Shown piece by piece: positions 6,162 to 54,424 of a stretch of DNA of 57,680 bases (position 1 is the stretch's first letter; the number at the start of each line of letters is the position of its first letter). Under the pieces are notes generated by a model. That model ran no database searches. It saw nothing but the letters and a program-made list of their open reading frames with translations, and was not told the DNA's origin. Made by a program: the position numbers and the translations under genes. The stretch lies in contig JAISRB010000055.1 of assembly GCA_031273825.1 (NCBI GenBank), positions 1 through 57,680 of the forward strand, in the 5' to 3' direction. This stretch comes from Clostridiales bacterium (lineage in GTDB: Bacteria; Bacillota; Clostridia; Christensenellales; JAISNN01).

Positions 6162-6767
6162 TTAACGCCTATAAAACCTTTCGTCCGTGTTGTCTATCCA
6201 TTCGCCGTCTATGAGTCTACAGCTAACAAGCCACGTGTTTTTACTGATGCGCTGCATTTCCTCGTCAACGATTTGTAGGCGACCTTCATTAACTGCCCCG
6301 ACTACCATCCCGCAAGCAATTTCCCGCTCAATATTGGGAGCGACATAAATGAATGTATCGGCTATAAATTTATATTTTTTCTTTATCCATTTACACAGCG
6401 ACATATATTGTTTATATATCGGATTATCATATGAGCTTTTGTCAATCCATATTCTGCCGTTACTTACTATATTGATTTCTCCAACCTTCGTATAAATCCG
6501 AGGGGTTGAATATTCAACAACCTGATTGTCTAAAGGCAGATAAATATCATGTTTTTCAGGTTTATAAAGTATTTTGTCTATATCCTCAATCGAAAGTCGA
6601 TATTGATTGCCAAACTCGCCGCAATCAATTTTCGTTACAGATTTATAGCAACTATGATCTATCGGTGGTCTGTCGCAATCATATATCTTTAGTCCGGACT
6701 CGATAACAAAATTCCTAAACTCGTTCATATCCTCTTGCGACTGCAAAAAATTGATTTGCTTACCCAT
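6162..6767 (-). CDS. Hypothetical protein, tandem paralog A (possible immunity-type protein)
   Basis: 201-aa ORF. It shares MGKQI-FLQSQEDM-EF, GR-WID--SYD-PIYKQ and IACG...QIVDEEM...CRLIDGE--DNTDERFYRR with the neighbouring ORF. Confidence 0.75.
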   Translation of the reverse strand: MGKQINFLQSQEDMNEFRNFVIESGLKIYDCDRPPIDHSCYKSVTKIDCGEFGNQYRLSIEDIDKILYKPEKHDIYLPLDNQVVEYSTPRIYTKVGEINIVSNGRIWIDKSSYDNPIYKQYMSLCKWIKKKYKFIADTFIYVAPNIEREIACGMVVGAVNEGRLQIVDEEMQRISKNTWLVSCRLIDGEWIDNTDERFYRR

Positions 6768-6787
6768 TTTTCCCCCGCACGGTATAC

Positions 6788-7384
6788 TTAATCCCGCCTA
6801 TAAAACCTTTCGTCCGTGTTGTCCACCAATTCGCCGTCTATGAGTCTACAATTACAGAGCCATGTCTTTCTGCAAACCGTTTTCATTTCCTCATCGACTA
6901 TTTGTATTGATCCGGAATTAACGGCGGCAATCACCCTACCGCAAGCAATATCCTCGGTCATATGGGGAGCGATATAGGCTTCGGAAATATACGTATAATT
7001 TTTCTTTATCCATCTTCGCAATTTTTCAAATTGCTTATATATCGGATAATCATACGACTCGGAGTCAATCCATAATCTTCCCCAATCCAAAATATCCGTT
7101 TCACCTTTTTTTTGATATTTTCGCGGAGCACTATACTCTATAATTTTACTAGGATTTAGAGAATAAATAGTATACTTCGCCTCATAAAGAAGTATTTCGT
7201 TCATTTTTTCTAGCGATAAATAATATGTGTCGTTAAATTTAACATCCTCTGCAAGTTTATAGCAGTCGGAACTTATCGGCGGTCTTTTTTTACAAACGCA
7301 TACATTTAATCCAATTTCGGCGATAACATCCGTAAACTCTTTCATGTCCTCTTGCGATTGTAAGAATCTTATTTGTTTTCCCAT
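6788..7384 (-). CDS. Hypothetical protein, tandem paralog B
   Basis: 198-aa ORF. By eye about half of the positions are identical to 6162..6767. It is on the same strand with a 20-nt gap. Confidence 0.75.
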   Translation of the reverse strand: MGKQIRFLQSQEDMKEFTDVIAEIGLNVCVCKKRPPISSDCYKLAEDVKFNDTYYLSLEKMNEILLYEAKYTIYSLNPSKIIEYSAPRKYQKKGETDILDWGRLWIDSESYDYPIYKQFEKLRRWIKKNYTYISEAYIAPHMTEDIACGRVIAAVNSGSIQIVDEEMKTVCRKTWLCNCRLIDGELVDNTDERFYRRD

Positions 7385-7399
7385 ATGCGCACCTATAGG

Positions 7400-7672
7400 C
7401 TAAGTCCGCCGAGCGCGGCTTGCGGACTTTGTTTTCCGACTAAGCCGTCTTTTTTTCCCGTCCGTGTCGAGCGTCTGCGCCTCGACATACTCCGTCTTAG
7501 ACGGCATTTGAGCAACCTCTATCCCCGTCAGCTCATGCTTAGTCCCGAGCGTCACGCCGACCGTCACCCCCGCCGTCAACAAAACAAAGCACGCCGCAAC
7601 GAGAATCGCCGCCAATCGATTCCCGATATAAAAATATTTGATTTTATTAAGTAGATTTTTTATGATTATCAT
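7400..7672 (-). pseudogene. Probable 5' remnant of a surface-protein gene
   Basis: A signal-anchor (LAAILVAACFVLLTAGVTVGV) is followed by the start of an Ig-like module (LTGIEVAQMPSKTEYVEAQTLDTDG). The ORF then runs into an Arg/Lys/Ser-rich tail and a stop. Confidence 0.35.
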
Positions 7673-7735: not shown

Positions 7736-8119
7736 CTAATCTTTTTGATATAAAATATCACAATCGCCGTCTACAAAGCCGTAAGCCACTACCTCGGCTT
7801 TTTTTAGTTTTTCGGCATATTTCCCTTCCTCCAAGTAGTCGGCAATAAAGGTTTGTATCAGTTTCAAACACTCCTCCCATTCCGCGTCCAGACTAAAATA
7901 ATATTCATTGTCGTCATTACGGCTTGCATACGTTTCCGCGCCGCCCGCATTCCAATCGGCGTCGTATTCGTCATATTTATCAAACGCCGTAAGCTCCACC
8001 GAATAGTTTTCATCTCCGGCGTTCTCATATATGTTAAAGCAAAACGCCGCCGTCTCTAAATTAAACGACTCTAACACCCCGTCTAACCACTTGTCAAATC
8101 CTCTTTGTAGTTCTTTCAT
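7736..8119 (-). CDS. Small acidic protein, immunity-protein-like
   Basis: 127-aa ORF rich in Asp/Glu, lying in the gene array downstream of the toxin. No family recognised. Confidence 0.6.
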   Translation of the reverse strand: MKELQRGFDKWLDGVLESFNLETAAFCFNIYENAGDENYSVELTAFDKYDEYDADWNAGGAETYASRNDDNEYYFSLDAEWEECLKLIQTFIADYLEEGKYAEKLKKAEVVAYGFVDGDCDILYQKD

Positions 8120-8139: not shown

Positions 8140-8769
8140 TTATACGGTTTCAATAAGATGAAATGAAAAACCGTGAAACTTATTTTTAGTAAAGACGTTC
8201 TTAAAGCGTTCCGATACAAAAAAGTGCCATGTCCCATTAAATGTTTCCTCGGTCGGCGCAAGTTTAAACACATCTAAACCATCAATCGCCTTTTGGTTAA
8301 GAACATATTTAAGTGGCGTTTTCATTTTTCCGCGAAAACTAACTCTTTCGTCATTGATAGAATATCGCTCATACACCGAATGCTCATAATTGAATGCATT
8401 ATCAACTAATTTCAAGACGTTGGCAATACAAAAACCCTCTAACAATTCATTTTTCGACGTATATACGTCGATAGGAATATATTGAATGTCCTCAATGCCG
8501 GCCTCGTTTAAAGCGCGAACCAACCTCCTTGAAAAAATCGGCACCATATCGGAATTTTGCAATACATCATCCGGCTCTCCGTCATCCGCCTCATCGGCGG
8601 AACGAAATATTATTTTTTTATCAATCGCTTCAAATGGTTTACCTATTGAGAATATTTTTCTCGCAAGATGCCATTTATCCCATATCCTCAATTCTACTAA
8701 GTTCGTTTCACTGCAAATTAACGGATTTCGTACCGTTTTATCACAAAAGATCGTGCGATAGTATTGCAT
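8140..8769 (-). CDS. Imm11/DUF1629-like immunity protein (recall-based)
   Basis: 209-aa ORF. The pattern PDDVLQNSDMVPIFSRRLVRALNEAGIEDIQYIPIDVY...FKL...FFVSERFKNVF resembles DUF1629 immunity proteins of polymorphic toxin loci. Confidence 0.55.
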   Translation of the reverse strand: MQYYRTIFCDKTVRNPLICSETNLVELRIWDKWHLARKIFSIGKPFEAIDKKIIFRSADEADDGEPDDVLQNSDMVPIFSRRLVRALNEAGIEDIQYIPIDVYTSKNELLEGFCIANVLKLVDNAFNYEHSVYERYSINDERVSFRGKMKTPLKYVLNQKAIDGLDVFKLAPTEETFNGTWHFFVSERFKNVFTKNKFHGFSFHLIETV

Positions 8770-8903
8770 TTTTGCACCTCTACTTATTTCAGATAACCAA
8801 CTTTGGTATAGATAGGAATTTTTATGATGTCAAAAGTATAGTTGTGAGCTTTAATTGCATGCTCTTTGTATTCGTTAAATAATTTTATGATATCCATATT
8901 CCC

Positions 8904-9497
8904 TCACTTAAACGATAGTTCTATTTCTTCGCGATTATACTCAAATACCCAATCCGAGTATTTGTTATAAATCGTACGGCGTATTGTCGTATCTAAAATA
9001 ACCACATCACAACCTCTTTCATCATAAATGTTAATTGCGCATTTTTGATTTACATCTACTAAAAACAACTGAGAATCCAGTTTCATTTCATAGGCGCGAC
9101 TCAAAAGAACTTTAAGTACATCCTCATTGTTATTTATTATATATACTCTTGCTTTTTGCATAACTTGATAGTCTTCGTCTTCGGCTTTTGACATAAACGT
9201 GTAAACGAATCGAGATTTGTTATTCTCTCCTAATAAATTTGAAATTGTTTTTATACAGCGCACTTCTGCATCCGTAATCTGAACAGCTATCAGTTTATCA
9301 GAAAAAAACATATCATTACAAAGGCTAAGAATGAAGCTCATTATATTTTTTTCTTCATATTGCCCATGTTCCGCAATCTCAAAGCGAATTGACCTGCCTA
9401 AATTATAATAATATAATGGCATTTCAATCCAAATGTCCTCGGTAAGTTGCCGATACAAGCGTTTTAAATTTTTAAAATCATCCATCACTGTCGCCAC
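8904..9497 (-). CDS. Probable cognate immunity protein (DUF3885-like, recall-based)
   Basis: 197-aa ORF whose start codon directly abuts the toxin stop (9497/9498). The C-terminal INIYDERGCDVVILD...YNKYSDWVFEYNREEI resembles DUF3885. Confidence 0.65.
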   Translation of the reverse strand: MATVMDDFKNLKRLYRQLTEDIWIEMPLYYYNLGRSIRFEIAEHGQYEEKNIMSFILSLCNDMFFSDKLIAVQITDAEVRCIKTISNLLGENNKSRFVYTFMSKAEDEDYQVMQKARVYIINNNEDVLKVLLSRAYEMKLDSQLFLVDVNQKCAINIYDERGCDVVILDTTIRRTIYNKYSDWVFEYNREEIELSFK

Positions 9498-12400
9498 CTA
9501 AAAGAGTCTTTTAATAATCTCAAACAACTTGCCTGCCTGACTGGAATGTTTATTGATAATCAGTTTTCCAGCCGCATCGGCATCGCCAAGTAATTTTAAA
9601 TACTTGCCGCCATGTTCCTCTAATATTTTTAGCGAAGAACCGCCATGCCCGGAGATATCATCTACCAAATAAACGCCATTTGGTTGCTTGTATGCTGTTA
9701 CAACTTTACCGCCCTGCGCTTTATATCTAACCGCAGCTGTAGCATCCTTTTTAATCCAACACGCCGCATTGTGAACCAACACTCCGTCATTATCACCGAC
9801 AAAGTAATTATGATTACCGTCAACCTCGAAGTTATAAACCTTAACGGGCTTTTCTAATATCTCATGCTGAATAGCTTCAACAACAACCTTTTGCCCATTA
9901 ACGTTGACGAGAATATCTCCCGCTCTTAAATCCTCGGCAGAAATCCATGCGCCGTTCGCAAAGAATTTATGTCCCGGCGTGGCAACTATCTCCTGTCCGT
10001 CGGAGGTCGTTATTTTTGTAAGCTCCGTTACTGTATTCTCAAATGTTTGGAGTACCCTTTTGTTTTCGACTTGCCCTATGGTTTCGTTATAACTCTTTAC
10101 GTAATCGCCTACCTTTATATCCTCTATCGCTTTTGTTGAACCGCTTGCTAATACTACGGCAGTACCCGCTACAAAGCAGAATTTTATCTTACTCAACGCC
10201 TTGCCCACGCCGTGGATTACCACGCCCGTGATAAAGCCGACCGTAAAGGCCTTTAATATATCCTCTATGCTGCCGCCCTCTGCCCATGTCATTGCGGCCT
10301 CCGTGCCGCCCTGCAATAAGCCCGCGCCGAGCCAGCCTATGCCCGGAATCGCGGCAAGCGCGCCCGACACCGCCGCTATACTTACGCGCACCCAATTTAT
10401 GTCTTTTATCTTTTTGCCTTGAACGACCGTCTGCATGAATATTTCCATGCCCGCACCGATAAACGCGCCCATGATATACGGCGCGGCGGCGGTTGCTATT
10501 CCGCAAGATACCACACTGAGAACGCCTATTATTATAACGCCCGTGAGGACTGCCCCGACCGCAAGAGCCGCGCCCGCAAGCCTGTCAAGCCATGTCGCTT
10601 TATCCTCTTCCTCTTGCGGAAAATCAAGCACGGACAAATTTCCGTTCTCGTCGACCCAATAATACTGATTCGGGCCGACCATTCGCTCCATTTGGTAGAA
10701 TTCCTCAACGTCAATCCCTAACAAGCTCTCGTCTTGATTGCTCAAATAATAAGCGTCAAGCGCGGAATAGCTGATATACACAAAATTCATTGTGTCCACG
10801 GTAAAGCCGTTCGCGGTTTGCTCCGCGATATACCTCTCATATTCGCCCTTAGCAATCACGGGGTCAAGTAAGGTGTTGAGCGAAGTTGCGCTAACATTGT
10901 ATGCCGCGCCTAAATCGGGGTCAAAAACATTGCGTCCGTCGTCATAGCTATACACCGCGCCGTACTCCGGATTGTATACGCTCTCGTCGGCGGCAGAAGT
11001 ATACAATACTTCCGTTCCGGTTACGCTATACACGACATATTGTCCGTCCGCGACGTAGTGACACGGACCGTAGCTTTCGGTGAAGCTCAATATGTAGCCG
11101 TAGGCTACCGTTTCTATACCTTCGTCCGATTGCTCGCCGTCCGGCTCTTGCGCGTATGCGTCTATTATATAAACTCCGTTCTCTATATCCTCTTCGGTTA
11201 TCTCGGCTTGCCGCGGGAACGCGACAAAGCCCGCGCCGAAGTATATTGTTTCGTCGCTCTCCTCCCCGCTCTCGTAAGCTTCGGCGTAGTCGGAATACCC
11301 CAAGCCCAAAACCTCCGCGCCGCCCTGCAATAGGGCTTTTGCCGGAAACACGTCGTAGCCCAAGGAATACAAATCGAGCATGATAAGCGCGTATAAAAAC
11401 GCCTCCCCGTCGGAAATGTCAAGCGCATTGTCTTGACCGCCCGCCTCACCCGACGCATTCACCGCGCTCATAAAGGTAGCTATTACTTCATCCTTTGTCG
11501 GTTTGTTTTCGATTTCGGAATTGCCAAATTCTAATCCGTTAAACAACGACGCGTCGGAATAGGTCTGCTCCGTCTGCGCGGTTGTTTCTTGTTGTCCCGC
11601 TTTGATTAAGCCTTGCCACGCTCCGAGCCTATCCCAATCGCCGAACGCGCTCAGCGCGAACAGCGCAACGACAAGCGCAAGCGCGGTGACCGTCGAAAAC
11701 GAACCGAGCTTTGCGAAACCGACCTTTTTTGCTCTCTTTGGCTTTAGCTCAAATGAAACCAAGCGCATATTCTCCGCCGTGACGGGCGGTTTGCAGGCGG
11801 TTCTATTCTTAATTTGACCGACTAAAGCCGACCCGAATAAGCCCTGTCTTTCGCGTCTTTTGGCGGCGATATATACTATAGCCAAAGCGAATACTGCAAA
11901 AAGCGTCGCGAGCAAGCCCGCTTGCGATTGACTTGACAAGCTCAAGCCGCTTTCCGCCGCGGCCGCGGTTCCGCTCCCATACGGCGACGCCGTTCCCGCC
12001 GCCGCGCTTTGCCCCTGCGCTCCGCCCGTCGCTCTCGCTGTCCAAATCGCCTCAAGCATGATTTTACCGCCAGCGTTTTCGGGAACTGTCATTGTTCCGC
12101 CCGTATAAATTTTCCCGGAAATCGACGTCGTTCTCCACACCCAGCCGACAAGCGTATACCCAGCCCTTGTCGGATTCGGCATGGCAAGCGCCGCCCCCGC
12201 GAAGCCTTGCGCAAACGTCGGGTCAAGCGTCCCGTCGACAAAATGAACGCGCGTCCGCCCTCCCGTACCGTTTTCTAAGCCGTCAAGCGAAACGTCGCCG
12301 TTCCTTATCCACAGCGCGTCTAAGCGCATAGCCGTCACGTTGGCAAGGCTTGTTATCTGTCCGTAATATACCTTGCCGACTCCCGCGCTTTCCTCTAAAT

Positions 12401-13586
12401 ACCACCCGAAAAAGGTGAAGCCCGACCGCGTCGGGAACGGCAAAAGCACCTTTTCGCCGGCGTGAGCCGTTATCGTCTGATAGAGATTGCCGTCGTAAAG
12501 AGAAATATTCGTTTCAAGATAATTCCACACGGCAACGAACGTCGGGCTTGCCGTAGTCGGTGTAAACGCGCCGCTATAGACCGCTCCGCCGTATTCCCAG
12601 CCGCCGAATGCCCAACCGTCTTTTTGCGCCGTCGGAAGCTCTATCGGCGTTCCGATTTCTACCTTTATCGACGGTATAGATCCGCCGCCGTCCGTGTCAA
12701 AATTGAGGTAGGTATATCGTTGCGTGACCTGTTGCCAAATATAGAGCGTACCGCTTCTGTCGGGCGTAAATTTGCCGTTCGTGATAAGCGTATCGTCATA
12801 AACCCAACCGTCAAAGACAAACAATTCGTTAGAAAGCGTAGGAATAGGCAATTCGATTTCTTGCCCGGCAAACGCCCGGTAGTAGGTCGTTATCGTTTCG
12901 TCCTCAAATTCCAATTCAAGATAAATATCGGCGTATCCTACGGGATTGTCGATTATCACCTCAAAAGAAAAATCGTTGCCGAGCCTGTCGACCAAAGTAA
13001 AGCTATATACTCCGCCCTCCGCAAACCAAATGTCCGCGACCTCATCGAAGGTATAGATCCGCGTATTTCCGTCCTTTGTAATCTTGACTATGCTATATGG
13101 GTCAAGCTCGTTGACCAAAGCCTTTAGAATAAAGCCGTGCGCGTAAACCGTCGCGGCGTTGCTCTTGCCGATTGTCCGCTCGGTCAATATTCCGTCGCGG
13201 AAAATTTCGAATACCGCCTCTCCCGTCATGTCTCCCGGACGGATATACACCGCCTCATATTCGCTGAATTCTCCGAAAACGTTGGTTTCTCTCACGGTAT
13301 AGATTCCCGTCGGCGCGTTGACTAACCCAAGCTGATATTCGACCGAAACGCCGTAGAGAATGTCGTACCGCGTTTCCGTTCCTTTGAGCGTCAAACTTAC
13401 GCTCTCGCTCTCAAAGCCGCCGATATGCAAAAACGCGAACTCCAACACGCCCTCCTCTATGTCGCCCGTCTCCGGCGAAACATAGCGGTATTTGCGTCCG
13501 TTCAACGACGGCAAACCGGCTTTCATATATTCCTGCTCGTCGTCGTTAAGGAAAACGATAACGTCGCGGTCAAAGCTCATCTCCAA
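9498..13586 (-). CDS. Polymorphic toxin: B-repeat region / TM cluster / Hint domain / C-terminal toxin tip. The ORF may be chimeric.
   Basis: 1362-aa ORF with four InlB-type (Listeria-Bacteroides) repeats (FDGWVYDD, FGGWEYGG, FFGWYLEE, LVGWVWRT). A pre-toxin TM cluster is followed by the Hint domain CFVAGT...GHKFF...VLVHN and an 89-aa tail. The first codon is TTG, and an ATG lies at 13580. Confidence 0.85.
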   Translation of the reverse strand: MEMSFDRDVIVFLNDDEQEYMKAGLPSLNGRKYRYVSPETGDIEEGVLEFAFLHIGGFESESVSLTLKGTETRYDILYGVSVEYQLGLVNAPTGIYTVRETNVFGEFSEYEAVYIRPGDMTGEAVFEIFRDGILTERTIGKSNAATVYAHGFILKALVNELDPYSIVKITKDGNTRIYTFDEVADIWFAEGGVYSFTLVDRLGNDFSFEVIIDNPVGYADIYLELEFEDETITTYYRAFAGQEIELPIPTLSNELFVFDGWVYDDTLITNGKFTPDRSGTLYIWQQVTQRYTYLNFDTDGGGSIPSIKVEIGTPIELPTAQKDGWAFGGWEYGGAVYSGAFTPTTASPTFVAVWNYLETNISLYDGNLYQTITAHAGEKVLLPFPTRSGFTFFGWYLEESAGVGKVYYGQITSLANVTAMRLDALWIRNGDVSLDGLENGTGGRTRVHFVDGTLDPTFAQGFAGAALAMPNPTRAGYTLVGWVWRTTSISGKIYTGGTMTVPENAGGKIMLEAIWTARATGGAQGQSAAAGTASPYGSGTAAAAESGLSLSSQSQAGLLATLFAVFALAIVYIAAKRRERQGLFGSALVGQIKNRTACKPPVTAENMRLVSFELKPKRAKKVGFAKLGSFSTVTALALVVALFALSAFGDWDRLGAWQGLIKAGQQETTAQTEQTYSDASLFNGLEFGNSEIENKPTKDEVIATFMSAVNASGEAGGQDNALDISDGEAFLYALIMLDLYSLGYDVFPAKALLQGGAEVLGLGYSDYAEAYESGEESDETIYFGAGFVAFPRQAEITEEDIENGVYIIDAYAQEPDGEQSDEGIETVAYGYILSFTESYGPCHYVADGQYVVYSVTGTEVLYTSAADESVYNPEYGAVYSYDDGRNVFDPDLGAAYNVSATSLNTLLDPVIAKGEYERYIAEQTANGFTVDTMNFVYISYSALDAYYLSNQDESLLGIDVEEFYQMERMVGPNQYYWVDENGNLSVLDFPQEEEDKATWLDRLAGAALAVGAVLTGVIIIGVLSVVSCGIATAAAPYIMGAFIGAGMEIFMQTVVQGKKIKDINWVRVSIAAVSGALAAIPGIGWLGAGLLQGGTEAAMTWAEGGSIEDILKAFTVGFITGVVIHGVGKALSKIKFCFVAGTAVVLASGSTKAIEDIKVGDYVKSYNETIGQVENKRVLQTFENTVTELTKITTSDGQEIVATPGHKFFANGAWISAEDLRAGDILVNVNGQKVVVEAIQHEILEKPVKVYNFEVDGNHNYFVGDNDGVLVHNAACWIKKDATAAVRYKAQGGKVVTAYKQPNGVYLVDDISGHGGSSLKILEEHGGKYLKLLGDADAAGKLIINKHSSQAGKLFEIIKRLF
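9501..9767 (-). other. C-terminal 89-aa toxin tip, family unassigned
   Basis: AACWIKKDATAAVRYKAQGGKVVTAYKQPNGVYLVDDISGHGGSSLKILEEHGGKYLKLLGDADAAGKLIINKHSSQAGKLFEIIKRLF lies immediately after Hint HN. Confidence 0.6.
9768..10178 (-). other. Hint (intein-like autoprocessing) domain of the toxin
   Basis: 137 aa from Cys (codon 10176-10178) of KF|CFVAGTAVV to the terminal VLVHN. Confidence 0.8.
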
Positions 13587-14004
13587 AACCGATTCTCCCT
13601 TGTCTGTTTATACTTGGTAACAGTATACCAAATCAACAATAATTTGTCAATAATTTCATTTGTGGTTTTAATATTTCAATTCAGAGTCATTCATTTGCGT
13701 AATTTGTGCCTTCATTTATGATTTATGGTAATTTTAGTTGATATTAAAAGTTTCAAAATAAGAGGTTTTTCGATTTTACGATTATACAATTTTACAAAAA
13801 CAATATAAAGCAATATGTGTAGACGCCGCTCGGAGATAGTCTGCCGCAATTTTCCCGTTTTATTATTTGACAAGGTATTATTTTAATATTGACTAACCGC
13901 AATCACCGCCCCCTAATTCCTACTAACCGCCGCCCGCCTTTCACCGGCTTTTTTGTTCCAAAAATTTTTTTTGCAACTTTTTTTAAAAACATGCCTTATT
14001 TTAT

Positions 14005-42165: not shown

Positions 42166-43653
42166 CTATTTCATTCTTATATCGTTTTGATGCGGTATAG
42201 ACTCGGGCCGTTTTTTGAGATTGAGGAGGCTCTGCTTGTCTATCGAATCCTTTATGTCCTCTCTTATATAGGGCGCGAACGGAGCGAGATACGGCGCGCC
42301 GTAGCTGTCGTAGGTCAGCATATAGGCGGTCATTGCAAGCGCGCAAAGTATCAGCCCGAAAAACCCGAAAAGCGACGATGCCAGCACCAACGCCAGACGA
42401 AATATGCTAAACGAGCTTATCTCGTCGGGTATGCAATATATTCCGATATTAGACATAGCCGCAATCAAAACCGTAGGCGAGCTTATAAGCCCGGCCTTGA
42501 CGGCGGTGTCGCCCAAAATTATCGCGCCGATAAGAGACAGCGACATGCCTATATAGCGCGGCATTCTGACGCTTGCCTCGTTGAGAATTTCAAAAATAAG
42601 CAGGACGAATATCATTTCTATCTCGACGGTAAACGGCAGCTCGTTGACCGAATTTATCACCGATATCAAAAAATTCATAGGCAGCAGCTGATAGTGCCGC
42701 GTCAAAACCGCTACATAAAAGCCCGGCAAAAGCAAGGCAAGTATTTCGCCTATAATTCTTATCATTCTGATAAAAAACGAACGCGCGTCGTTTTTGTAGT
42801 AGTCCGCGCTGTCCTGCAAGTCCTCAATCAAAATAAAGGGTATAGTAAGGACTATAGGCGAGCCGTCGGAGACTACCGCCACGCGCCCTTCGAGCAGCTT
42901 TGCCGTCACTATGTCGGGCTTTTCACTGACTCCGATTTGCTTTAACATGCTATACTTGCGTTCCTTCAGAAATTCCGCCAAATATGACGAGTCTATAACG
43001 CCGTCGACGTCGATTTCTTTGAGCCTTTTTCTGACCTTTTCGACGATATTCGGGTCGGCTATGCTCGATATATAGACGAGTGAAACGCCCGTAGAGGTAT
43101 ACCTCCCCACCTTGATTGTCTCGACGACAAAATCGCGGCTTCTTAGCCGCTTTCTAAGGAGGGCGGTGTTGATTTTCATGTCCTCGGTAAAGCCCTCTCT
43201 CGGCCCTTTTAAAACCGTAGACGTGGGCGGCTCGCTTATGGCTCTCGACGGATTGCTCCTGATAGAAAACAGATAATATTCGCCCGCCCCCCCGATAAAA
43301 AGCGCGACGTCTCCGTCGGCGATTTTTTTGACCAGCTTTTCAAAATCAGTCTCGGTCGCCGTCTCGTCGGCCGCGCTTATATGCGCCTTTAATACGTCAA
43401 AATACGAAGTCACGGCTTCGCCCGTTTTGCCTTGACCTTGTCCGTCGGCGTTGTTGTCCGCGCCGCCCTGCAGACGGCTTTTTATCAACGCGTCGATGAC
43501 GTTTCTTTCGACGCTCAGCTTGTCTATAAGCCCGTCTATATAGCAAATACACACGGGCTTGCCGCCCGCGTAAAATTCCTTAAAATTCAAATCGTCCGTC
43601 CGATGAAAGGCTTCCTCTAACCTCGCCCTTAACCCGTCTATCTCTATAATCAT
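42166..43653 (-). CDS. Spore germination protein, GerAA-type
   Basis: 495 aa with the typical soluble N-domain and a C-terminal TM region (PTVLIAAMSNIG...). Confidence 0.85.
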   Translation of the reverse strand: MIIEIDGLRARLEEAFHRTDDLNFKEFYAGGKPVCICYIDGLIDKLSVERNVIDALIKSRLQGGADNNADGQGQGKTGEAVTSYFDVLKAHISAADETATETDFEKLVKKIADGDVALFIGGAGEYYLFSIRSNPSRAISEPPTSTVLKGPREGFTEDMKINTALLRKRLRSRDFVVETIKVGRYTSTGVSLVYISSIADPNIVEKVRKRLKEIDVDGVIDSSYLAEFLKERKYSMLKQIGVSEKPDIVTAKLLEGRVAVVSDGSPIVLTIPFILIEDLQDSADYYKNDARSFFIRMIRIIGEILALLLPGFYVAVLTRHYQLLPMNFLISVINSVNELPFTVEIEMIFVLLIFEILNEASVRMPRYIGMSLSLIGAIILGDTAVKAGLISSPTVLIAAMSNIGIYCIPDEISSFSIFRLALVLASSLFGFFGLILCALAMTAYMLTYDSYGAPYLAPFAPYIREDIKDSIDKQSLLNLKKRPESIPHQNDIRMK

Positions 43654-48127: not shown

Positions 48128-51100
48128 CTACGCCAGGTGATCCCTATAATGGTCCGCTCCCCATTCCAAAAACGCTTCTACGGCGTTATCATAAGTATGA
48201 TAAGGATCGGTCCCGTCCCATACGTTTACGTCGATCTGCGTCCAACCGGCTACAACGCCGGACGTTGCCTGCCAATCGGTGCTTCTATAGTCTATATAAG
48301 CGTTCTTTATCCAGCTAAAATAATTTTCGGTGTCCATGATCATATCGTTCATAACGAGCAGACGCTGCGTCAGGAAGTTTATCATATAGGCGTAATGATT
48401 GACAAACGTCAATTTATTTCCCTCGGTAAGCTCATCTAAATTAAGCCCCGTCAGCGTGTTAAACCACAACGTCTCGTTGGCAAGCGCGGCATCCATTATG
48501 TGCGCCTGATATTCTTGCAAAAAGACTATGTGCTCCTCGAACACGTCGTGTAACAGGTTCTCCCATCTCGCCTTCATAAGGGTGCGGAAATCCTCAAACT
48601 CGAGCATCTTTGCAAACCAGTTTCTCGTCGATATCCACGTATACGAGGCGTTGTCCGGGCTCTCGCTAGGGTTGACGACCGAGTTATAGCTCCAGAGTCC
48701 CGGATTTGTCGAACCCTTATATTCGGCGACAAACATATCGAAAGGACCGCCTACCGACCAGTCGATATCCCAGACCGGCCCCATTTTTAGCTTTCCGTCC
48801 GCGCTCTTGCTCATAAACACGCTCTTGCCGTAAACGTCGCAATTCATAAGCCACTCTTGAATGAGATAGTAGTCTATAAACGAATCCATATCGACAAGCT
48901 CGTTAAGCTTAGCCCAGACCTCCGGATCATAAGGGTGGCGCATGAGATAGTCTATATACTGAACGTAAGAATATATATACTTAAACTGCGTCTCCGTCAG
49001 GCCGTGCTCGTCAATGCTCGGGTATGCCACCTTGGCGACGACGTAGCCGTTCATGGTGCTAAGCGTAAACGTCGCGTCGTAGGTTGCCGCGTTGTAGTAG
49101 TTAAAATAGAACGCTCCGGTAGAAGGATTTTGCGCGAACGGATCGGCCGCCGTCGCGTCAAGCTCGACGAGGAAGGCAAAGTCGCTCCGGTCCGCCGGGT
49201 CAAACGTCGGCTCGTACATCGAGCCGCCCTCGGCTATCTCGTCCTCGTCCATCTCTATTCCCAGTCTCTGCTCCTGAATCTGATCCGTCAGCATATATAT
49301 GCCCTGATAAACACCGTTGATAAACACCTCGACGTGGTAGCCTATTCTGCCCGTGCTTTGCGTCTCGAGCTTTTCGGCAAGGCTAAGCGCGGCGTAGTCT
49401 CTGACGACCGCCGCGTCGAGCGCGGACGCCAAAAGCACCCAGCTCTTAAAGGCCTCGCTGCCAAAGAAGGAGGTCTTGGTGTCAAACTTGATGCGATAAG
49501 GCTTTTTTGCCCTGCTTGCGGTGGTGTTGCCTCTTACTCTTATGCCTCCGACCTTTCCGTCAAAATAGACGTATTCGTCCTCGACAAATTTGAAGCTCGA
49601 AAGCGTATAGTCGTCGTTGTCCGCGTCGCTTGTCTTAGGCGGAATCGGAACGTTTCCGTCGGTGGTTATATAGATTATCGGAAGTATTCCCGCCGTTATC
49701 GAATAAGGCGGCGTGTCAAATATCTCCGTCCATGCTCCGTCTGCGAGGCTTCTCGGGCGGTATTTGCCTACGTCCGCAGACGACCAGTCGATAAATTCCG
49801 CGTCTACGGCGTTGTCGTCGGTGTCGGCGAAGTCTATGCGCCTCAAGGCCTTTTGCTTTGACTGACCGGAAGGCGCGGCCGCGCCCTCAAAGGCGTCTAT
49901 GCTGTCGTTTTTGCCCGTGCCCTTGGCGGCGAGCATATCTATATAGCCGTAGGCCTTTGCGCCCTCTCCGTCGATATTAAAAGGATTCTCGACGGTCAAA
50001 ACCTCGGTGTTAGTCATCAAAACGACCTTGACCGACTTGTTTTGTAGGGTTATGCCGCTCCAGTTGAGGTCGGCCTCGGTTATTCTCAAATTTGCCGGGT
50101 CGGCCATGCCGGTGTTGGCGTAATCGGTCAGTCTTATAAGGAAGGAGGTCCTCGCCGGAATACTCCCGAAAAGCTCGATCATCTGCCACTCGGTTCCGCT
50201 GCTTGCCGCCTGCACAGACCAGCCGGCTATCGAGACGGCTACGTCGTTAGGGTTATAAAGCTCGATAAAGGAGTGTGAGCCCATAGCGTCCGTCTTGTCG
50301 GCCACGCCGTATATCTGATTGATTATAATCATGTCTTGCGCCGAATATTTTGCGTTCAGCGTGACGTTGTGAGACGGCATCGCCGTTCCGAATTGATAAG
50401 GAACCGTGTCCGGACCGTCGGCCTCGTACCAATATTCAAACACGTGTCTATAAGAATAAGGAATATAAGAGATCGACGTCGTCGCCGCTCCGACGGCGTA
50501 GCTGTTTTGGGCGACTATCTCGCCCTCGCTCGCGTATTTGAGGTAATAGTCAAATTTTGCGTATACGTTGACGGCCTTAGTCAGACGCGCCGAAACGTAT
50601 TCCGTGCCGTAAAACGGTACTGTCCAAACGTCCTCGTCATAATACCACCCGACAAACTCGCCGGAGTCCGCGGTTGCTTGCAAATTTGGCAGCGGAATTG
50701 TCTCTCTGCCGGAGGTCATATAGGTTGATACAAGCTTGTTTTCGGCGTAAAATCTGACGGGATATTGGTCAAACGCGCCCCATTTGGCTCTAAGTATGAG
50801 ATTTCTCGCCGGCATAACGTCGGTATAAGGTTGGGTCTCGTCGGTCTCATACCAATAATAAAACGCCAAATCGTCACGGGCAGGCGGAGACCACGGCGTG
50901 ATTGCAGCGCCCGAGACATAGGCGACCTTGTGCGTTCCCGAGCCGTATTCATAGGTCAGGTTGTAGTTAAACTTAGCGTAAACCCTTAGGTCGGAGGTCA
51001 ACGCCGACGTCTTATAAACGCTCGCGTCAAACGGAGTGCTTATGTTGCCGTTGATATACCAGCCGATAAAATTGCCGTATACCGCTCCGGGCGTAGTCGG

Positions 51101-51280
51101 CAATTTTATTTCCTCATTGCCCGCGGTCTCGACTGTGTCGTAGACCTCGTTTTCGACGATAAACTCGATTTTGTAAACCGTCGGCTTCTTTTTAGTCCAC
51201 GTCCAATCGCAACCCGCCGCTGCAAGCGCAAAGCAGGTCAGCAACACGGCCGCCAAAACTAATTTTGTTACCTTTTTCAT
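48128..51280 (-). CDS. Secreted (probable lipo-)protein: B-repeats, lamin-tail domain and CotH-family domain
   Basis: Signal peptide MKKVTKLVLAAVLLTCFALAAAGC. InlB-type repeats (FIGWYING, FYYWYETD, FVGWYYDE). LTD (SFIELYNPNDVAVSIAGWSV). CotH-like (YHVEVFINGVYQGIYML, GPVWDIDWSVGG). Confidence 0.85.
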   Translation of the reverse strand: MKKVTKLVLAAVLLTCFALAAAGCDWTWTKKKPTVYKIEFIVENEVYDTVETAGNEEIKLPTTPGAVYGNFIGWYINGNISTPFDASVYKTSALTSDLRVYAKFNYNLTYEYGSGTHKVAYVSGAAITPWSPPARDDLAFYYWYETDETQPYTDVMPARNLILRAKWGAFDQYPVRFYAENKLVSTYMTSGRETIPLPNLQATADSGEFVGWYYDEDVWTVPFYGTEYVSARLTKAVNVYAKFDYYLKYASEGEIVAQNSYAVGAATTSISYIPYSYRHVFEYWYEADGPDTVPYQFGTAMPSHNVTLNAKYSAQDMIIINQIYGVADKTDAMGSHSFIELYNPNDVAVSIAGWSVQAASSGTEWQMIELFGSIPARTSFLIRLTDYANTGMADPANLRITEADLNWSGITLQNKSVKVVLMTNTEVLTVENPFNIDGEGAKAYGYIDMLAAKGTGKNDSIDAFEGAAAPSGQSKQKALRRIDFADTDDNAVDAEFIDWSSADVGKYRPRSLADGAWTEIFDTPPYSITAGILPIIYITTDGNVPIPPKTSDADNDDYTLSSFKFVEDEYVYFDGKVGGIRVRGNTTASRAKKPYRIKFDTKTSFFGSEAFKSWVLLASALDAAVVRDYAALSLAEKLETQSTGRIGYHVEVFINGVYQGIYMLTDQIQEQRLGIEMDEDEIAEGGSMYEPTFDPADRSDFAFLVELDATAADPFAQNPSTGAFYFNYYNAATYDATFTLSTMNGYVVAKVAYPSIDEHGLTETQFKYIYSYVQYIDYLMRHPYDPEVWAKLNELVDMDSFIDYYLIQEWLMNCDVYGKSVFMSKSADGKLKMGPVWDIDWSVGGPFDMFVAEYKGSTNPGLWSYNSVVNPSESPDNASYTWISTRNWFAKMLEFEDFRTLMKARWENLLHDVFEEHIVFLQEYQAHIMDAALANETLWFNTLTGLNLDELTEGNKLTFVNHYAYMINFLTQRLLVMNDMIMDTENYFSWIKNAYIDYRSTDWQATSGVVAGWTQIDVNVWDGTDPYHTYDNAVEAFLEWGADHYRDHLA

Positions 51281-51481
51281 TTAGTCTCTCCTTTTTCGAT
51301 TCTATTTTTTTTGATTTGACTTTACCTCGTTTGTTTTTTCATAAGTTTTTTTGGGGGTGTTTTTTCGTTTGTTTGTTTGAGGATTTTTCGTTTGTTTGCT
51401 TAATATTTCGTTTGTTTTCCGATTACCTCTTTTGTTTTGCCGTTTTCTGTCTATATAGCTATCTGATATATCGTACTTGTT

Positions 51482-51508
51482 GTAGGGGCGGACGCCCTCG
51501 GCCGCCCG
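51482..51508 (+). repeat. REP-like palindromic element
   Basis: GTAGGGGCGGACGCCCTCGGCCGCCCG. Confidence 0.8.
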
Positions 51509-51599
51509 TCGTTCCCCGAATTTGTGTATGCCGTATTGTTTATGTACGTTGTCGTTGTTTTACGTGCGTCACGGATTGTTTATGTGCATTGCCGCTGTC

Positions 51600-51628
51600 T
51601 GCGGGCGGCCGGGGGCGTCCGCCCCTAC
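51600..51628 (-). repeat. REP-like palindromic element (inverted copy)
   Basis: The reverse complement, GTAGGGGCGGACGCCCCCGGCCGCCCGCA, is identical to the 47053-47081 core. Confidence 0.8.
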
Positions 51629-51670
51629 GATTCCGTTGTGTTTTATGTTGTGTGCGATATCGTTGCATTC

Positions 51671-54313
51671 TTAGGCGTTTTTGCTTTTTGTTATATTTGA
51701 CTTATGAACGACGGGCATTACGGCGGCATGGAACGCAGTCTCGCCGACGTTGTCAACCCACATTACGGGCAGGACGTTAAACCAATTTCCGTTGATGAGG
51801 TTTGGTTGAGTGATGAGTACGTCGTTGCTAGCCTTACCCTTTTGGAGCAGTGTCTCGCCGCTGAGAAGTGCAATCAAGCTTGCCGGGTTACTGTAGCTAA
51901 ATTGCGGCGTGCGCTGCGCCTGATTTATGCGCAAACGATTTGAATGCGACGAAAAATCGCTGTTGTATTGGGTATCTATATAGGTCATCAAGGTATTTAT
52001 ATCGTCGGTGTTTGCCCACGGTGCTATGACGTTGCCGCCATTTCTGTGATATACCTTGCTGTTATTGATGATGTTATCAAAGCCGTCCTCGCCGTCCTCG
52101 GAATCGGCCATCAGCACCACCGCTCCCGCCTTGTCGGTCACCGCGTCGCCGTAGGTCAGAGACCCGAGCGGTTTGGTCGAGGCGTTATAAGGAACGTAGT
52201 CAAAGAGCGATCTGCCGCCGGCCTCATGCTTGACGCTGTCGATAAAGTTATACAATGCCTGCAGGCTCGAGCCGTTGGTGTAAACCCTTTGTATGTCAAA
52301 GACTATCAGCTCTCTCGGGTGATCATACATAAACTGCAATGCGTCTCTCAGATAAGACTCAAAGGTGCTTGAGATAAGCCCGTGCTCGGTATACCATACT
52401 CCGTTTGAATGAACCAGCCGCACGTCATAGAGCCTTACGCCGTTTTTGGCTAAGTCGGACGCGCCGAGGCTTTGAGCTTTTGAAAGCCTCGCCGTAACAC
52501 TTTTTACCGTGCCTTCAAATGCCCCGAAACTACTCCCGTATTGAAGAAAATTCGGGTCAACCGGATTCCACTGATTGCCGCTCGCAATATTATGAGTAAA
52601 CGCGTCGTGCGCTCCCAGCATGGCTATATCGACTACCCTGATATTTTTGTTGAATATGCTGTTTGCCATAATATTAGAGTAGTAGTCCGTGTCCGTCGCA
52701 GTAAAGCCCGTCTCCGTCACCCACCTTGCGTAGAGCGTCTTTTGCGACGCCGTTCCTGTCGGAGTCCACGGGAAAAGAATCGGATAAGCATCGGAGGTTG
52801 ACTCGACCCACCCCAAAAACAGGCTTGAGGTCTTTGTCGGGTGCGTCGGCAGCGAGGCCGACTGCCCCGCGTAGACGGTTTGGTTAGGAATATCGCCCGC
52901 GCCGCCGTTTTTGTCAAATATGACGGTATAATAGAACGTCCACTTGGCGTAGAGCGTTATGTCGCCCGTAGGAGTATAAGGAAAGGTCACCTCGGAGCCG
53001 CTATAGCTTGACGACTCATACCACCCGTCAAAGCGGTAGCTTGCCAAAACCGGGTTGTCGGGCTTAGCTATCGACGAGCCGGCTCTGACATTTTGAGAGG
53101 CGACTCCCGACCCTCCCGTCGAGTCAAAGGTGACGGTATAAAGCTCCGTCCACTTGGCGTAGAGGGTTATGCTTCCCGTCGGGGTGTATGGCGAGTTTAT
53201 CTTTGAGCCGCCGCCGTCTTGACCGGTAAACCACCCGTCAAAGGCGTAGCCGGTTCTCACCGGCGTCGGCAGCTCTATGCTGCCGCCGGCTCTGACCGAT
53301 TGAGAGGATATCGGCGACCCGTTCATAAAATCAAGGGCGACGATATAGAGCGGAGCCGTCCGTTTGGCATAAAAAACCGCGTCGCCCCACGCTATATAAA
53401 AGTCGAGACCGTAGGCCGGAACGCCCTCAAAGCTTTGAGACGAAAACCACCCCTCAAAATCGGAATTGCCCGACAAAACGTTCGACAGCAATATCGACGT
53501 TCCGACGGTCGTAGCAATCGAGTCGACGGCAACGTCGCCGTCTTTAAAGGTTATAGTACACCGTTGATACCATTTTGCATATAGCGTTATGTCGTTTGCC
53601 GCCGTGTAATTCCACAAGGCCTTGTTGGCAAAGCCCGCGTCGGTATACCAGCCGTCAAATATGTAGCCGTCCTTTTGAAGCTTCGGCAACATAAACGCAG
53701 ACTCGGCGGAAACATTCATATAAAAGGTTCCGTCGAGGGGGTCGACAAAGGTGACCGTGCTTTTTTGGGCAAGCTTGGCATAAAGCCTGATATCCTTTGA
53801 CGGCTTATAAGGCAACCTTACGGCTAAGCCTAAGCAAGCCGGGTCGGTAAACCACCCCTCGATAATAGAGTCGCCGCTGACGAGGGGCAAATCGGCAGAT
53901 TCGCCTATAGGTACGACTATTGTTGCAGTCAAAGCCCCGCCTATATAAAGACCGACCGCGTATGAATTGACAAATTTGGCATAAAGCGTGACGCTCTTAT
54001 CGGGTATAAAAAACCAATCCTCGGCCGTTCCGCTAAGGTCGGGGGCGGCAAACCACCCCTCAAATATGTAGCCCGGTCTATAAATCGTAGGCAACAAGAT
54101 TGACGTTCCCGCGCCGACGCTGACCGGCTCGACGGGCGAGCCGCCGTTGCTGTCAAACGAGACGGTATAAACCTCCGCCGCATAAGAAACGCCGCCGCCG
54201 AACGGGCTTTTTTCCCCGACAAAATAAGCGCCTGCCGCCATTAACGACAAGAACGCCGCCGCCAATATGAGCGCGACTTTTCTTTTATCGGCAAATTTCA
54301 CTTTTTCTCTCAT
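51671..54313 (-). CDS. Surface protein: signal-anchor, about 7 B-repeats, PI-PLC X-domain-like C-terminus
   Basis: 880 aa. Repeats of the type VTFDSNGGS...GY.FDGWF...YTPT..ITLYAKW. C-terminal DIAMLGAHDAFTH, VRLYDVRL and WYTEHGLIS. Confidence 0.85.
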   Translation of the reverse strand: MREKVKFADKRKVALILAAAFLSLMAAGAYFVGEKSPFGGGVSYAAEVYTVSFDSNGGSPVEPVSVGAGTSILLPTIYRPGYIFEGWFAAPDLSGTAEDWFFIPDKSVTLYAKFVNSYAVGLYIGGALTATIVVPIGESADLPLVSGDSIIEGWFTDPACLGLAVRLPYKPSKDIRLYAKLAQKSTVTFVDPLDGTFYMNVSAESAFMLPKLQKDGYIFDGWYTDAGFANKALWNYTAANDITLYAKWYQRCTITFKDGDVAVDSIATTVGTSILLSNVLSGNSDFEGWFSSQSFEGVPAYGLDFYIAWGDAVFYAKRTAPLYIVALDFMNGSPISSQSVRAGGSIELPTPVRTGYAFDGWFTGQDGGGSKINSPYTPTGSITLYAKWTELYTVTFDSTGGSGVASQNVRAGSSIAKPDNPVLASYRFDGWYESSSYSGSEVTFPYTPTGDITLYAKWTFYYTVIFDKNGGAGDIPNQTVYAGQSASLPTHPTKTSSLFLGWVESTSDAYPILFPWTPTGTASQKTLYARWVTETGFTATDTDYYSNIMANSIFNKNIRVVDIAMLGAHDAFTHNIASGNQWNPVDPNFLQYGSSFGAFEGTVKSVTARLSKAQSLGASDLAKNGVRLYDVRLVHSNGVWYTEHGLISSTFESYLRDALQFMYDHPRELIVFDIQRVYTNGSSLQALYNFIDSVKHEAGGRSLFDYVPYNASTKPLGSLTYGDAVTDKAGAVVLMADSEDGEDGFDNIINNSKVYHRNGGNVIAPWANTDDINTLMTYIDTQYNSDFSSHSNRLRINQAQRTPQFSYSNPASLIALLSGETLLQKGKASNDVLITQPNLINGNWFNVLPVMWVDNVGETAFHAAVMPVVHKSNITKSKNA

Positions 54314-54337
54314 ACGGTCTATTACCCCATCGTTTAT

Positions 54338-54366
54338 ATTATATCACCAAAATCGACGCTTGTCAA
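54338..54366 (-). promoter_or_regulatory. Consensus sigma-A promoter for 51671..54313
   Basis: The minus strand reads TTGACA, a 17-nt spacer, then TATAAT. The -10 ends about 25 nt upstream of the ATG. Confidence 0.6.
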
Positions 54367-54424
54367 TACACAACTTTACAAAACCCGTGACAAAACTAAA
54401 AGCCGATTGCGTTTTTTGACGTTT

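Follow-up and report, generated by a model that had tools for sequence, protein, structure and literature searches.

The DNA analyzed here, hereafter the window, is a 57,680-nucleotide (nt) contig of a Clostridiales bacterium (GenBank assembly GCA_031273825.1, contig JAISRB010000055.1), in which we examined a predicted polymorphic toxin (PT) gene and the small gene that follows it. The toxin gene lies at positions 9498–13586 on the minus strand and encodes 1362 amino acids (aa) from a TTG start as listed; the database representative of the protein, P0002, has 1360 aa. It ends in a HINT domain followed by an 89-aa C-terminal extension, which we call the tip, and the next gene on the same strand belongs to the DUF3885 family. 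To judge from sequence, the two genes very likely form a real and intact toxin-immunity cassette, with DUF3885 as the immunity partner of the tip in Bacillota.

The PT-HINT pre-toxin autoproteolytic domain (9768–10148, minus strand; aa 1147–1273, terminal VHN) was recognized by Pfam over aa 1147–1274 (PF07591; E 4e-28, profile positions 4–137 of 137), and the intein N- and C-terminal splicing models of NCBIfam concur with the call. The domain ends in LVHN, the final asparagine being aa 1273, and a cysteine lies no more than three residues downstream, as it does in homologues. The tip (9501–9767, minus strand; aa 1274–1362, AACWIKK...KRLF) has a predicted isoelectric point (pI) of 9.55. A HINT domain immediately N-terminal to a variable C-terminal domain is the arrangement of PT-HINT-type toxins. 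An earlier note on this DNA had described an 89-aa tip at 9501–9767 (residues 1274–1362) behind the terminal HN of a HINT domain, with a further open reading frame (ORF) next to it, and had placed the tip in the canonical toxin slot; its coordinates and gene content, including those of the next ORF, are correct, and the PT-HINT match bears out the slot.

The N-terminal half of the carrier contains three stretches of Flg_new repeats (Pfam), the best-scoring of which is a Listeria-Bacteroides repeat at 12333–12479 (minus strand; aa 370–418, PF09479, E 1e-13). These are surface repeats. Kyte-Doolittle analysis with a window of 19 found two hydrophobic, transmembrane-like segments at 11634–11930 (minus strand; aa 553–577 and 624–651), and a glycine-rich hydrophobic region with three to four such segments directly precedes the HINT domain (10203–10589, minus strand; aa 1000–1128; segments at aa 1000–1043, 1068–1088, and 1110–1128). 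The carrier shares aa 1032–1362 with its closest homologue, P0003, and aa 1076–1356 with an RHS protein, P0010, which indicates that the glycine-rich hydrophobic stretch, the HINT domain, and the tip travel together. Upstream of the toxin start, the ORF extends for just seven codons until a stop (9498–13607).

The ORF at 8904–9497 matches PF13021 (E 1.4e-17; 64.9 bits against a cut-off of 23; profile positions 5–189 of 189), a family that Pfam lists as DUF3885 without an assigned function, and it scores 112 bits against a hidden Markov model (HMM) built from 57 homologues. The family's invariant core, as seen in the alignment of 57 sequences, lies in YDERGCDV and W.FEYNR (Y154, D155, R157, G158, and D160; W179, Y183, and R185). 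The protein of the window is a clear member that keeps every invariant core residue, which confirms the assignment made from these motifs in the earlier note. A word-index search with this protein returned only itself, and it contains neither a signal peptide nor a transmembrane segment.

The same note called the two genes translationally abutting. The GTG at 9497, which adjoins the toxin stop codon, is only the earliest candidate start in an automatically generated ORF listing, and the public gene call starts at ATG 9485, which gives a predicted immunity gene at 8904–9485 (minus strand) encoding 193 aa (197 aa if GTG 9497 is used) with a pI of 4.9. A Shine-Dalgarno motif, AGGTGG (9494–9499, minus strand), overlaps the TAG stop codon of the toxin gene (9498–9500) and lies 8 nt before ATG 9485. 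ATG 9485 is more likely to be the true start, and the GTG next to the stop probably belongs to the ribosome-binding site instead. A spacing of 12 nt with a ribosome-binding site that overlaps the stop still implies tight coupling, so this part of the description stands and the abutment probably does not.

No credible match to the tip was found by hmmscan in Pfam (15-bit noise), NCBIfam (none), or PADLOC, where a PRTase_III-A match (E 0.0099, 13 bits) was regarded as noise. A fast word-index homology search with the tip alone also found no homologue. An exhaustive HMMER search of 1.84 billion cluster representatives recovered 43 at E ≤ 1e-3, the best non-self matches having E-values of 2.5e-15 and 5.2e-14, and a profile of 28 trimmed tip domains recovered 109 further clusters. 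Named members of the latter come from Brevibacillus, Serratia, Cystobacter, Streptomyces, Sinosporangium, Bacteriovoracia, Dependentiae, Alphaproteobacteria, and Kapabacteria, and their annotations are either hypothetical or based on the carrier only. The domain ends within five residues of the protein C terminus in 33 of 34 tip homologues. Because the tip has 43 homologues at E ≤ 1e-3, nearly all of them at the C terminus of a protein, it is a real family member and not a chance tail. It is not unique: it belongs to a sizeable, uncurated family that spans Bacillota, Pseudomonadota, Myxococcota, Bacteroidota-like, and other lineages.

The carriers of the family differ. When 35 members were scanned against Pfam (E ≤ 0.01), carrier and pre-toxin domains were found (PT-HINT in nine, RHS repeats in four, PT-TG in one) together with one weak Peptidase_M60_C match, and none of the members matched a named toxin family. 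A further carrier is an RHS protein on an Asticcacaulis plasmid, and some tip-homologue loci have TPS- or DUF6443-type neighbors. One C-terminal domain carried by differing proteins, and always at their C terminus, is a hallmark of PT systems. The tip-family members matched no toxin model of NCBIfam even at E ≤ 10, and no Pfam or NCBIfam HMM for HNH/AHH nucleases, deaminases, ADP-ribosyltransferases, BECR RNases, or Ntox families matched the tip region. Scanned singly, neither the sequence from the window nor the 35 homologues could be assigned, in agreement with the view of the earlier note that the tip lies outside the named toxin families.

Conservation was counted over 95 non-redundant tip domains, using tip numbering. 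D37, K47, D64, and G67 are present in all 95; D62 and K73 in 93; H41 and G79 in 92; S44 in 88; and H74 in 86. The sequence signature of the family is D-x3-HGGS-x2-K ... D-x-D-x2-G ... KH, and the tip of the window retains D37, H41, G42, S44, K47, D62, D64, G67, K73, H74, and G79. It falls in a minority "KHSS" branch (10 of the 95 domains), the majority of which is visibly HINT linked. The median pI of the toxin-tip family is 9.4.

DUF3885 is the immediate downstream gene in 6 of the 14 distinct tip loci examined, the window included, so the pairing proposed in the earlier note recurs at five more independent loci. At the locus of the closest homologue (P0003, L096), the DUF3885 gene lies directly downstream with a 4-nt overlap; it also directly follows the gene for P0010, a 2042-aa RHS and HINT protein (L097/L098). 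In Brevibacillus gelatini (L001) an orphan tip precedes DUF3885, and in Paenibacillus lacisoli (L017) a gene encoding HINT plus tip does so. The toxin and DUF3885 genes overlap by 4 nt at two of the homologous loci. The sixth locus, from Viridibacillus sp. (L036), has a weak tip-like domain: the protein encoded upstream of DUF3885 (L036:2280–2936) has no family match, and its tip-like C terminus is short and divergent and ends in ...KDTANHGGRKWKL...SLDEKGNIIAD, with E 1e-3 against the tip HMM. By sequence, this C terminus looks like a truncated tip variant that lacks the KH segment.

Other genes take the place of DUF3885 elsewhere. Unannotated proteins of 170–200 aa with an "FHHTG" motif and no Pfam match are encoded immediately downstream of tip homologues at three loci (L003–L005, L006, and L009), in lineages without DUF3885. 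At two alphaproteobacterial loci, the tips are followed by HEAT/LRV-like repeat proteins of about 137 aa that are 39% identical to each other (L007:3353–3772 and L101:2710–3120, the latter from Asticcacaulis), and two further tip loci have singleton downstream genes. At every tip locus examined, a small gene without a signal sequence follows, either adjacent or with a 4-nt overlap. A small downstream gene that co-varies with the toxin domain is a second hallmark of PT systems, and the tip family uses at least three unrelated predicted immunity families, of which DUF3885 is just one.

A structure model of the tip was predicted with AlphaFold2 from an alignment of 28 sequences (pLDDT 86.5, pTM 0.77) and consists of a short N-terminal helix followed by six strands. 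The conserved residues map to the β1-β2, β3-β4, and β5-β6 connections of the predicted model. Because a simple meander puts these connections at the same end of the sheet, the conserved loops (D37-x3-HGGS-x2-K47, D62-x-D64-x2-G67, and K73-H74) likely form one clustered site in the model. Two other identities were tried and set aside. A phmmer match to the Lyn SH3 domain among PDB sequences (E 0.08) was not reproduced by the family profile, and a Pol-β nucleotidyltransferase identity, considered for its GS...DxD pattern, does not agree with the model, which has two strands between the motifs rather than a helix and a strand.

Taken together, the domain architecture, the occurrence of one C-terminal family on several carriers, the recurrent adjacency of DUF3885, and a break in base composition lead us to regard this region as most likely a polymorphic toxin-immunity cassette in which a basic tip would be released by HINT, act in the cytoplasm, probably as a nuclease, and be blocked by DUF3885. 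By analogy with HINT-type polymorphic toxins, the HINT domain would cleave after its terminal HN and release the tip. The freed tip would be a small, basic (pI about 9.5), all-β enzyme; comparison with such toxins suggests that its site of action would be a rival's cytoplasm and that it is most probably a nuclease. The producer would be protected by the DUF3885 protein, which is acidic, has no signal peptide, and would be translated together with the toxin and bind the tip. A basic tip paired with an acidic DUF3885 protein that has no signal or transmembrane segment points to a cytoplasmic and probably nucleic-acid target and to charge-complementary inhibition.

Several observations weigh against this reading. 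No catalytic family could be assigned to the tip by sequence or fold search; Foldseek with the tip model returned nothing at E ≤ 0.001 in PDB or BFVD, and the nuclease chemistry is argued from analogy for this reason. In a reverse look-up of 80 DUF3885 loci from GTDB species genomes (L010–L089), a tip was found upstream in one, or in two when the weak case is counted; most DUF3885 genes are orphans or hold another role. A single-sequence structure model of the DUF3885 protein reached a pLDDT of 38.9 and was unusable. Finally, neither a signal peptide nor a known trafficking domain was recognized in the 1362-aa carrier, which, unlike the usual PT-HINT/RHS carriers, has no recognizable LXG, WXG, or PAAR domain, and its export is unexplained.

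Stand-alone genes of this kind are typical of orphan immunity genes, and another cellular role is possible. Among the 80 loci, almost every Bacillales DUF3885 gene is solitary and lacks an upstream toxin. Members of the Bacillus cereus group have it behind a conserved 367-aa protein with a β-lactamase-like domain.

That most DUF3885 genes stand alone would also suit a reading in which the tip, instead of being a toxin, serves a binding or structural purpose at the C terminus without enzymatic activity, and DUF3885 happens to lie next to it, as would the nature of the matches that the fold search did yield, which were generic small β-barrel binders at non-significant scores (best PDB match E 0.034, TM-score 0.36). 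We consider this reading very improbable. The tip sits directly behind a pre-toxin HINT domain, and RHS and PT-TG proteins carry it as well; conservation across phyla covers eleven of its polar or glycine positions; each locus examined has a small gene without a signal sequence close behind the tip or overlapping it, and the families of these genes recur; and the tip lies within a swapped low-GC module with an array of orphan immunity genes, described below.

The toxin-immunity reading leaves the type of enzyme to be argued from the tip itself. The conserved set of two His, two Lys, and three Asp residues would, by analogy, suit either a ribonuclease (RNase) with His/Lys chemistry or a deoxyribonuclease (DNase) with Asp-bound metal. 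A metal-dependent DNase, in which D62-x-D64 and D37 bind Mg2+ with H41 or H74 as general base, would make use of two invariant aspartates (D37 and D64), a nearly invariant one (D62), and the His and Lys residues that are conserved too, and the domain is basic; in addition, two short novel toxin domains, PT1 and PT7, proved to be Mg-dependent DNases (bioRxiv 10.1101/2021.10.19.465003). However, the tip shows no similarity to known DNase folds (HNH, PD-(D/E)xK, Ntox15, and others), and the family profile finds nothing among PDB sequences, where PT1 and PT7 would be expected if deposited. We judge a metal-dependent DNase to be rather unlikely and, with low confidence and by analogy, prefer an RNase that uses His and Lys for acid-base catalysis to a metal-dependent DNase of the DxD type.

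One specific RNase was considered, namely that the tip is a very distant form of the 16S ribosomal RNA-cleaving fold of colicin E3 and cloacin DF13 (Tox-ColE3, PF09000), with Lys47 in place of the catalytic Glu. The E3 RNase domain reportedly consists of a short N-terminal helix and a six-strand meander, and the order of elements in the predicted tip model is compatible with that layout. The pattern W-x-x-D-x2-3-HG-...-[K/E]-V-[FY]-...-D-x-x-x-G-N-x-[IL] can be traced, by eye only, between the family and colicin E3 (YEWDSQHGELEGY...FDPKTGNQL), and a Bacillus homologue (MEWDHTHNDIEVYDSKGKHLGSMDPLTGDMI) was compared by eye likewise. Like the colicin E3/cloacin DF13 domain (PF09000; PDB: 1E44) and the CdiA-CT of Enterobacter cloacae, which is similar to it in structure, the tip is small, basic, and mostly β, at about 60–90 residues; it shares with colicin E3 and cloacin a D-x(2-3)-HG motif with a charged residue behind it and, later, a D...G-N hairpin, and both are borne by HINT and RHS proteins and countered in different lineages by immunity families that are unrelated to one another. 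Zhang et al. (2012; PMC3482391) list Tox-ColE3 as an all-β domain that is linked to HINT and RHS and has unrelated immunity families.

The sequence comparisons do not follow the visual one. With hhalign, the 28-sequence tip profile gave P 0.21 against colicin E3, and the 95-sequence profile gave P 0.25 against a five-sequence alignment (colicin E3 and four relatives from plasmids), in a register that differs from the one found by eye; local, global, and low-MAC modes gave P 0.25 or worse. PF09000 matched none of seven tip-family members at E ≤ 10, with colicin E3 itself scoring 1.5e-34. Colicin E3 was absent among the top 50 Foldseek PDB matches listed, in which no TM-score exceeded 0.39. Unlike colicin E3, the tip has Lys for the catalytic Glu, lacks the second His that is conserved in that fold, and has an extra conserved KH motif; no conserved residue of the tip family corresponds to H72, the histidine that according to Zhang et al. 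(PMC3482391) all members of the fold share. A colicin E3 relationship therefore appears improbable, and the resemblance is a lead, not a classification. As a separate observation, Bacillus plasmid pMK-07 encodes part of a colicin E3-like rRNase domain (MEWDHTHNDIEVYDSKGKHLGSMDPLTGDMIKGP...; L090:1400–1630), an orphan without annotation that overlaps a hypothetical gene annotated in the opposite direction.

The earlier note had proposed a new toxin-immunity fold, to be checked by profile search and by Foldseek on a predicted structure of residues 1274–1362. These searches gave no confident profile hit and no significant structural match, and hmmsearch with the family profile against PDB sequences returned only irrelevant proteins (best E 0.16). 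A confident tip model without a structural match is compatible with the reading of a new toxin fold. In its strongest form, the tip would be an undescribed superfamily of enzymatic toxins with a fold unrepresented in PDB, DUF3885 its dedicated immunity family, and the orphan DUF3885 genes acquired defenses against this toxin; we advance this tentatively, as a proposal whose chances fall slightly short of even.

The cassette continues into a low-GC region downstream. GC content is 0.52–0.59 over the carrier, falls to 0.43–0.46 from the start of the HINT domain (~10148), and is 0.32–0.39 over the tip and the genes down to ~6100. This break suggests, and is consistent with, a horizontally swapped module of HINT, tip, and immunity gene. 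Behind DUF3885 on the minus strand lie a 37-aa ORF of uncertain status (8784–8897), an Imm11-family orphan immunity gene (8140–8769; 209 aa, PF07791, E 3.6e-12, 46.5 bits against a cut-off of 22.1), a gene for a very acidic 127-aa protein without a family (7736–8119; pI 4.05), and two tandem paralogues of 201 and 198 aa at 6162–7384 (6162–6767 and 6788–7384), which are 52% identical and have no family match. The position of the gene for the 127-aa protein suggests that it is also an orphan immunity gene. The same role, against some toxin, is probable for the paralogues, which close the low-GC array. With Imm11, these genes make up a typical orphan immunity array.

A 90-aa ORF with one transmembrane segment is located at 7400–7672, where the local GC content rises to 0.51, and may represent part of a surface protein that was trapped inside the immunity array. 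Further along the window, 48128–57640 encodes three more large Flg_new-repeat surface proteins, one of them with CotH and lamin-tail domains, and a GerA germination protein is encoded at 42166–43653. Flg_new surface proteins and GerA together indicate that the host is a spore-forming member of the Bacillota.

In its overall layout, the system resembles the PT-HINT/RHS polymorphic toxins as defined by Zhang et al. (2012; PMC3482391): a big repeat carrier, a HINT domain, a short variable C-terminal toxin domain found on differing carriers, a linked immunity gene, an orphan immunity array downstream, and a composition break at the swapped module. It differs from them in that its tip matches no Tox- or Ntox family held by Pfam, and neither the tip motif nor DUF3885 as an immunity family was found in the paper's main text. 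Two collections of short toxin domains are closer in kind: PT1–PT9, of which PT1 and PT7 have solved structures with a novel topology (Nachmias et al., bioRxiv 10.1101/2021.10.19.465003), and Tox1–24, the toxin domains of W10XG/PT-TG proteins (PMC13483458). Like them, the tip is shorter than 100 aa, C-terminal, and without a family, with conserved catalytic-type residues and an acidic cytosolic immunity protein. The supplement of the PT1–9 preprint contains no sequence that matches the tip, and the six Tox sequences that PMC13483458 prints, translated by eye, do not resemble it, a comparison limited to these printed sequences.

Two Staphylococcus aureus papers are the only ones in the searchable literature in which DUF3885 itself appears, and there it serves as an annotation label. 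In an S. aureus genomic-island table (PMC9520408), a frameshifted DUF3885 gene stands directly before a gene for a "SAR2788 family putative toxin," and DUF3885 may thus have another toxin family, SAR2788, as a partner. An identity of the tip with SAR2788 was considered and set aside, since tip-family members match no NCBIfam toxin model.

Polymorphic toxins with linked immunity genes are already well known as a type, and unassigned PT tips are common, so the findings extend this knowledge rather than overturn it. What is new is a recurrent genomic partner for DUF3885, the tip family, which suggests an immunity role for it. If this is true, DUF3885, which is present in very many Bacillales genomes, would gain an immunity function, and the catalog of interbacterial weapons would grow by a toxin domain of about 85 residues that occurs across phyla, has a confidently predicted fold without a counterpart among solved structures, and carries a compact set of conserved catalytic-type residues open to direct mutation. 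It would also be a further toxin family countered by at least three unrelated immunity families and, as such, useful for understanding how inhibition evolves.

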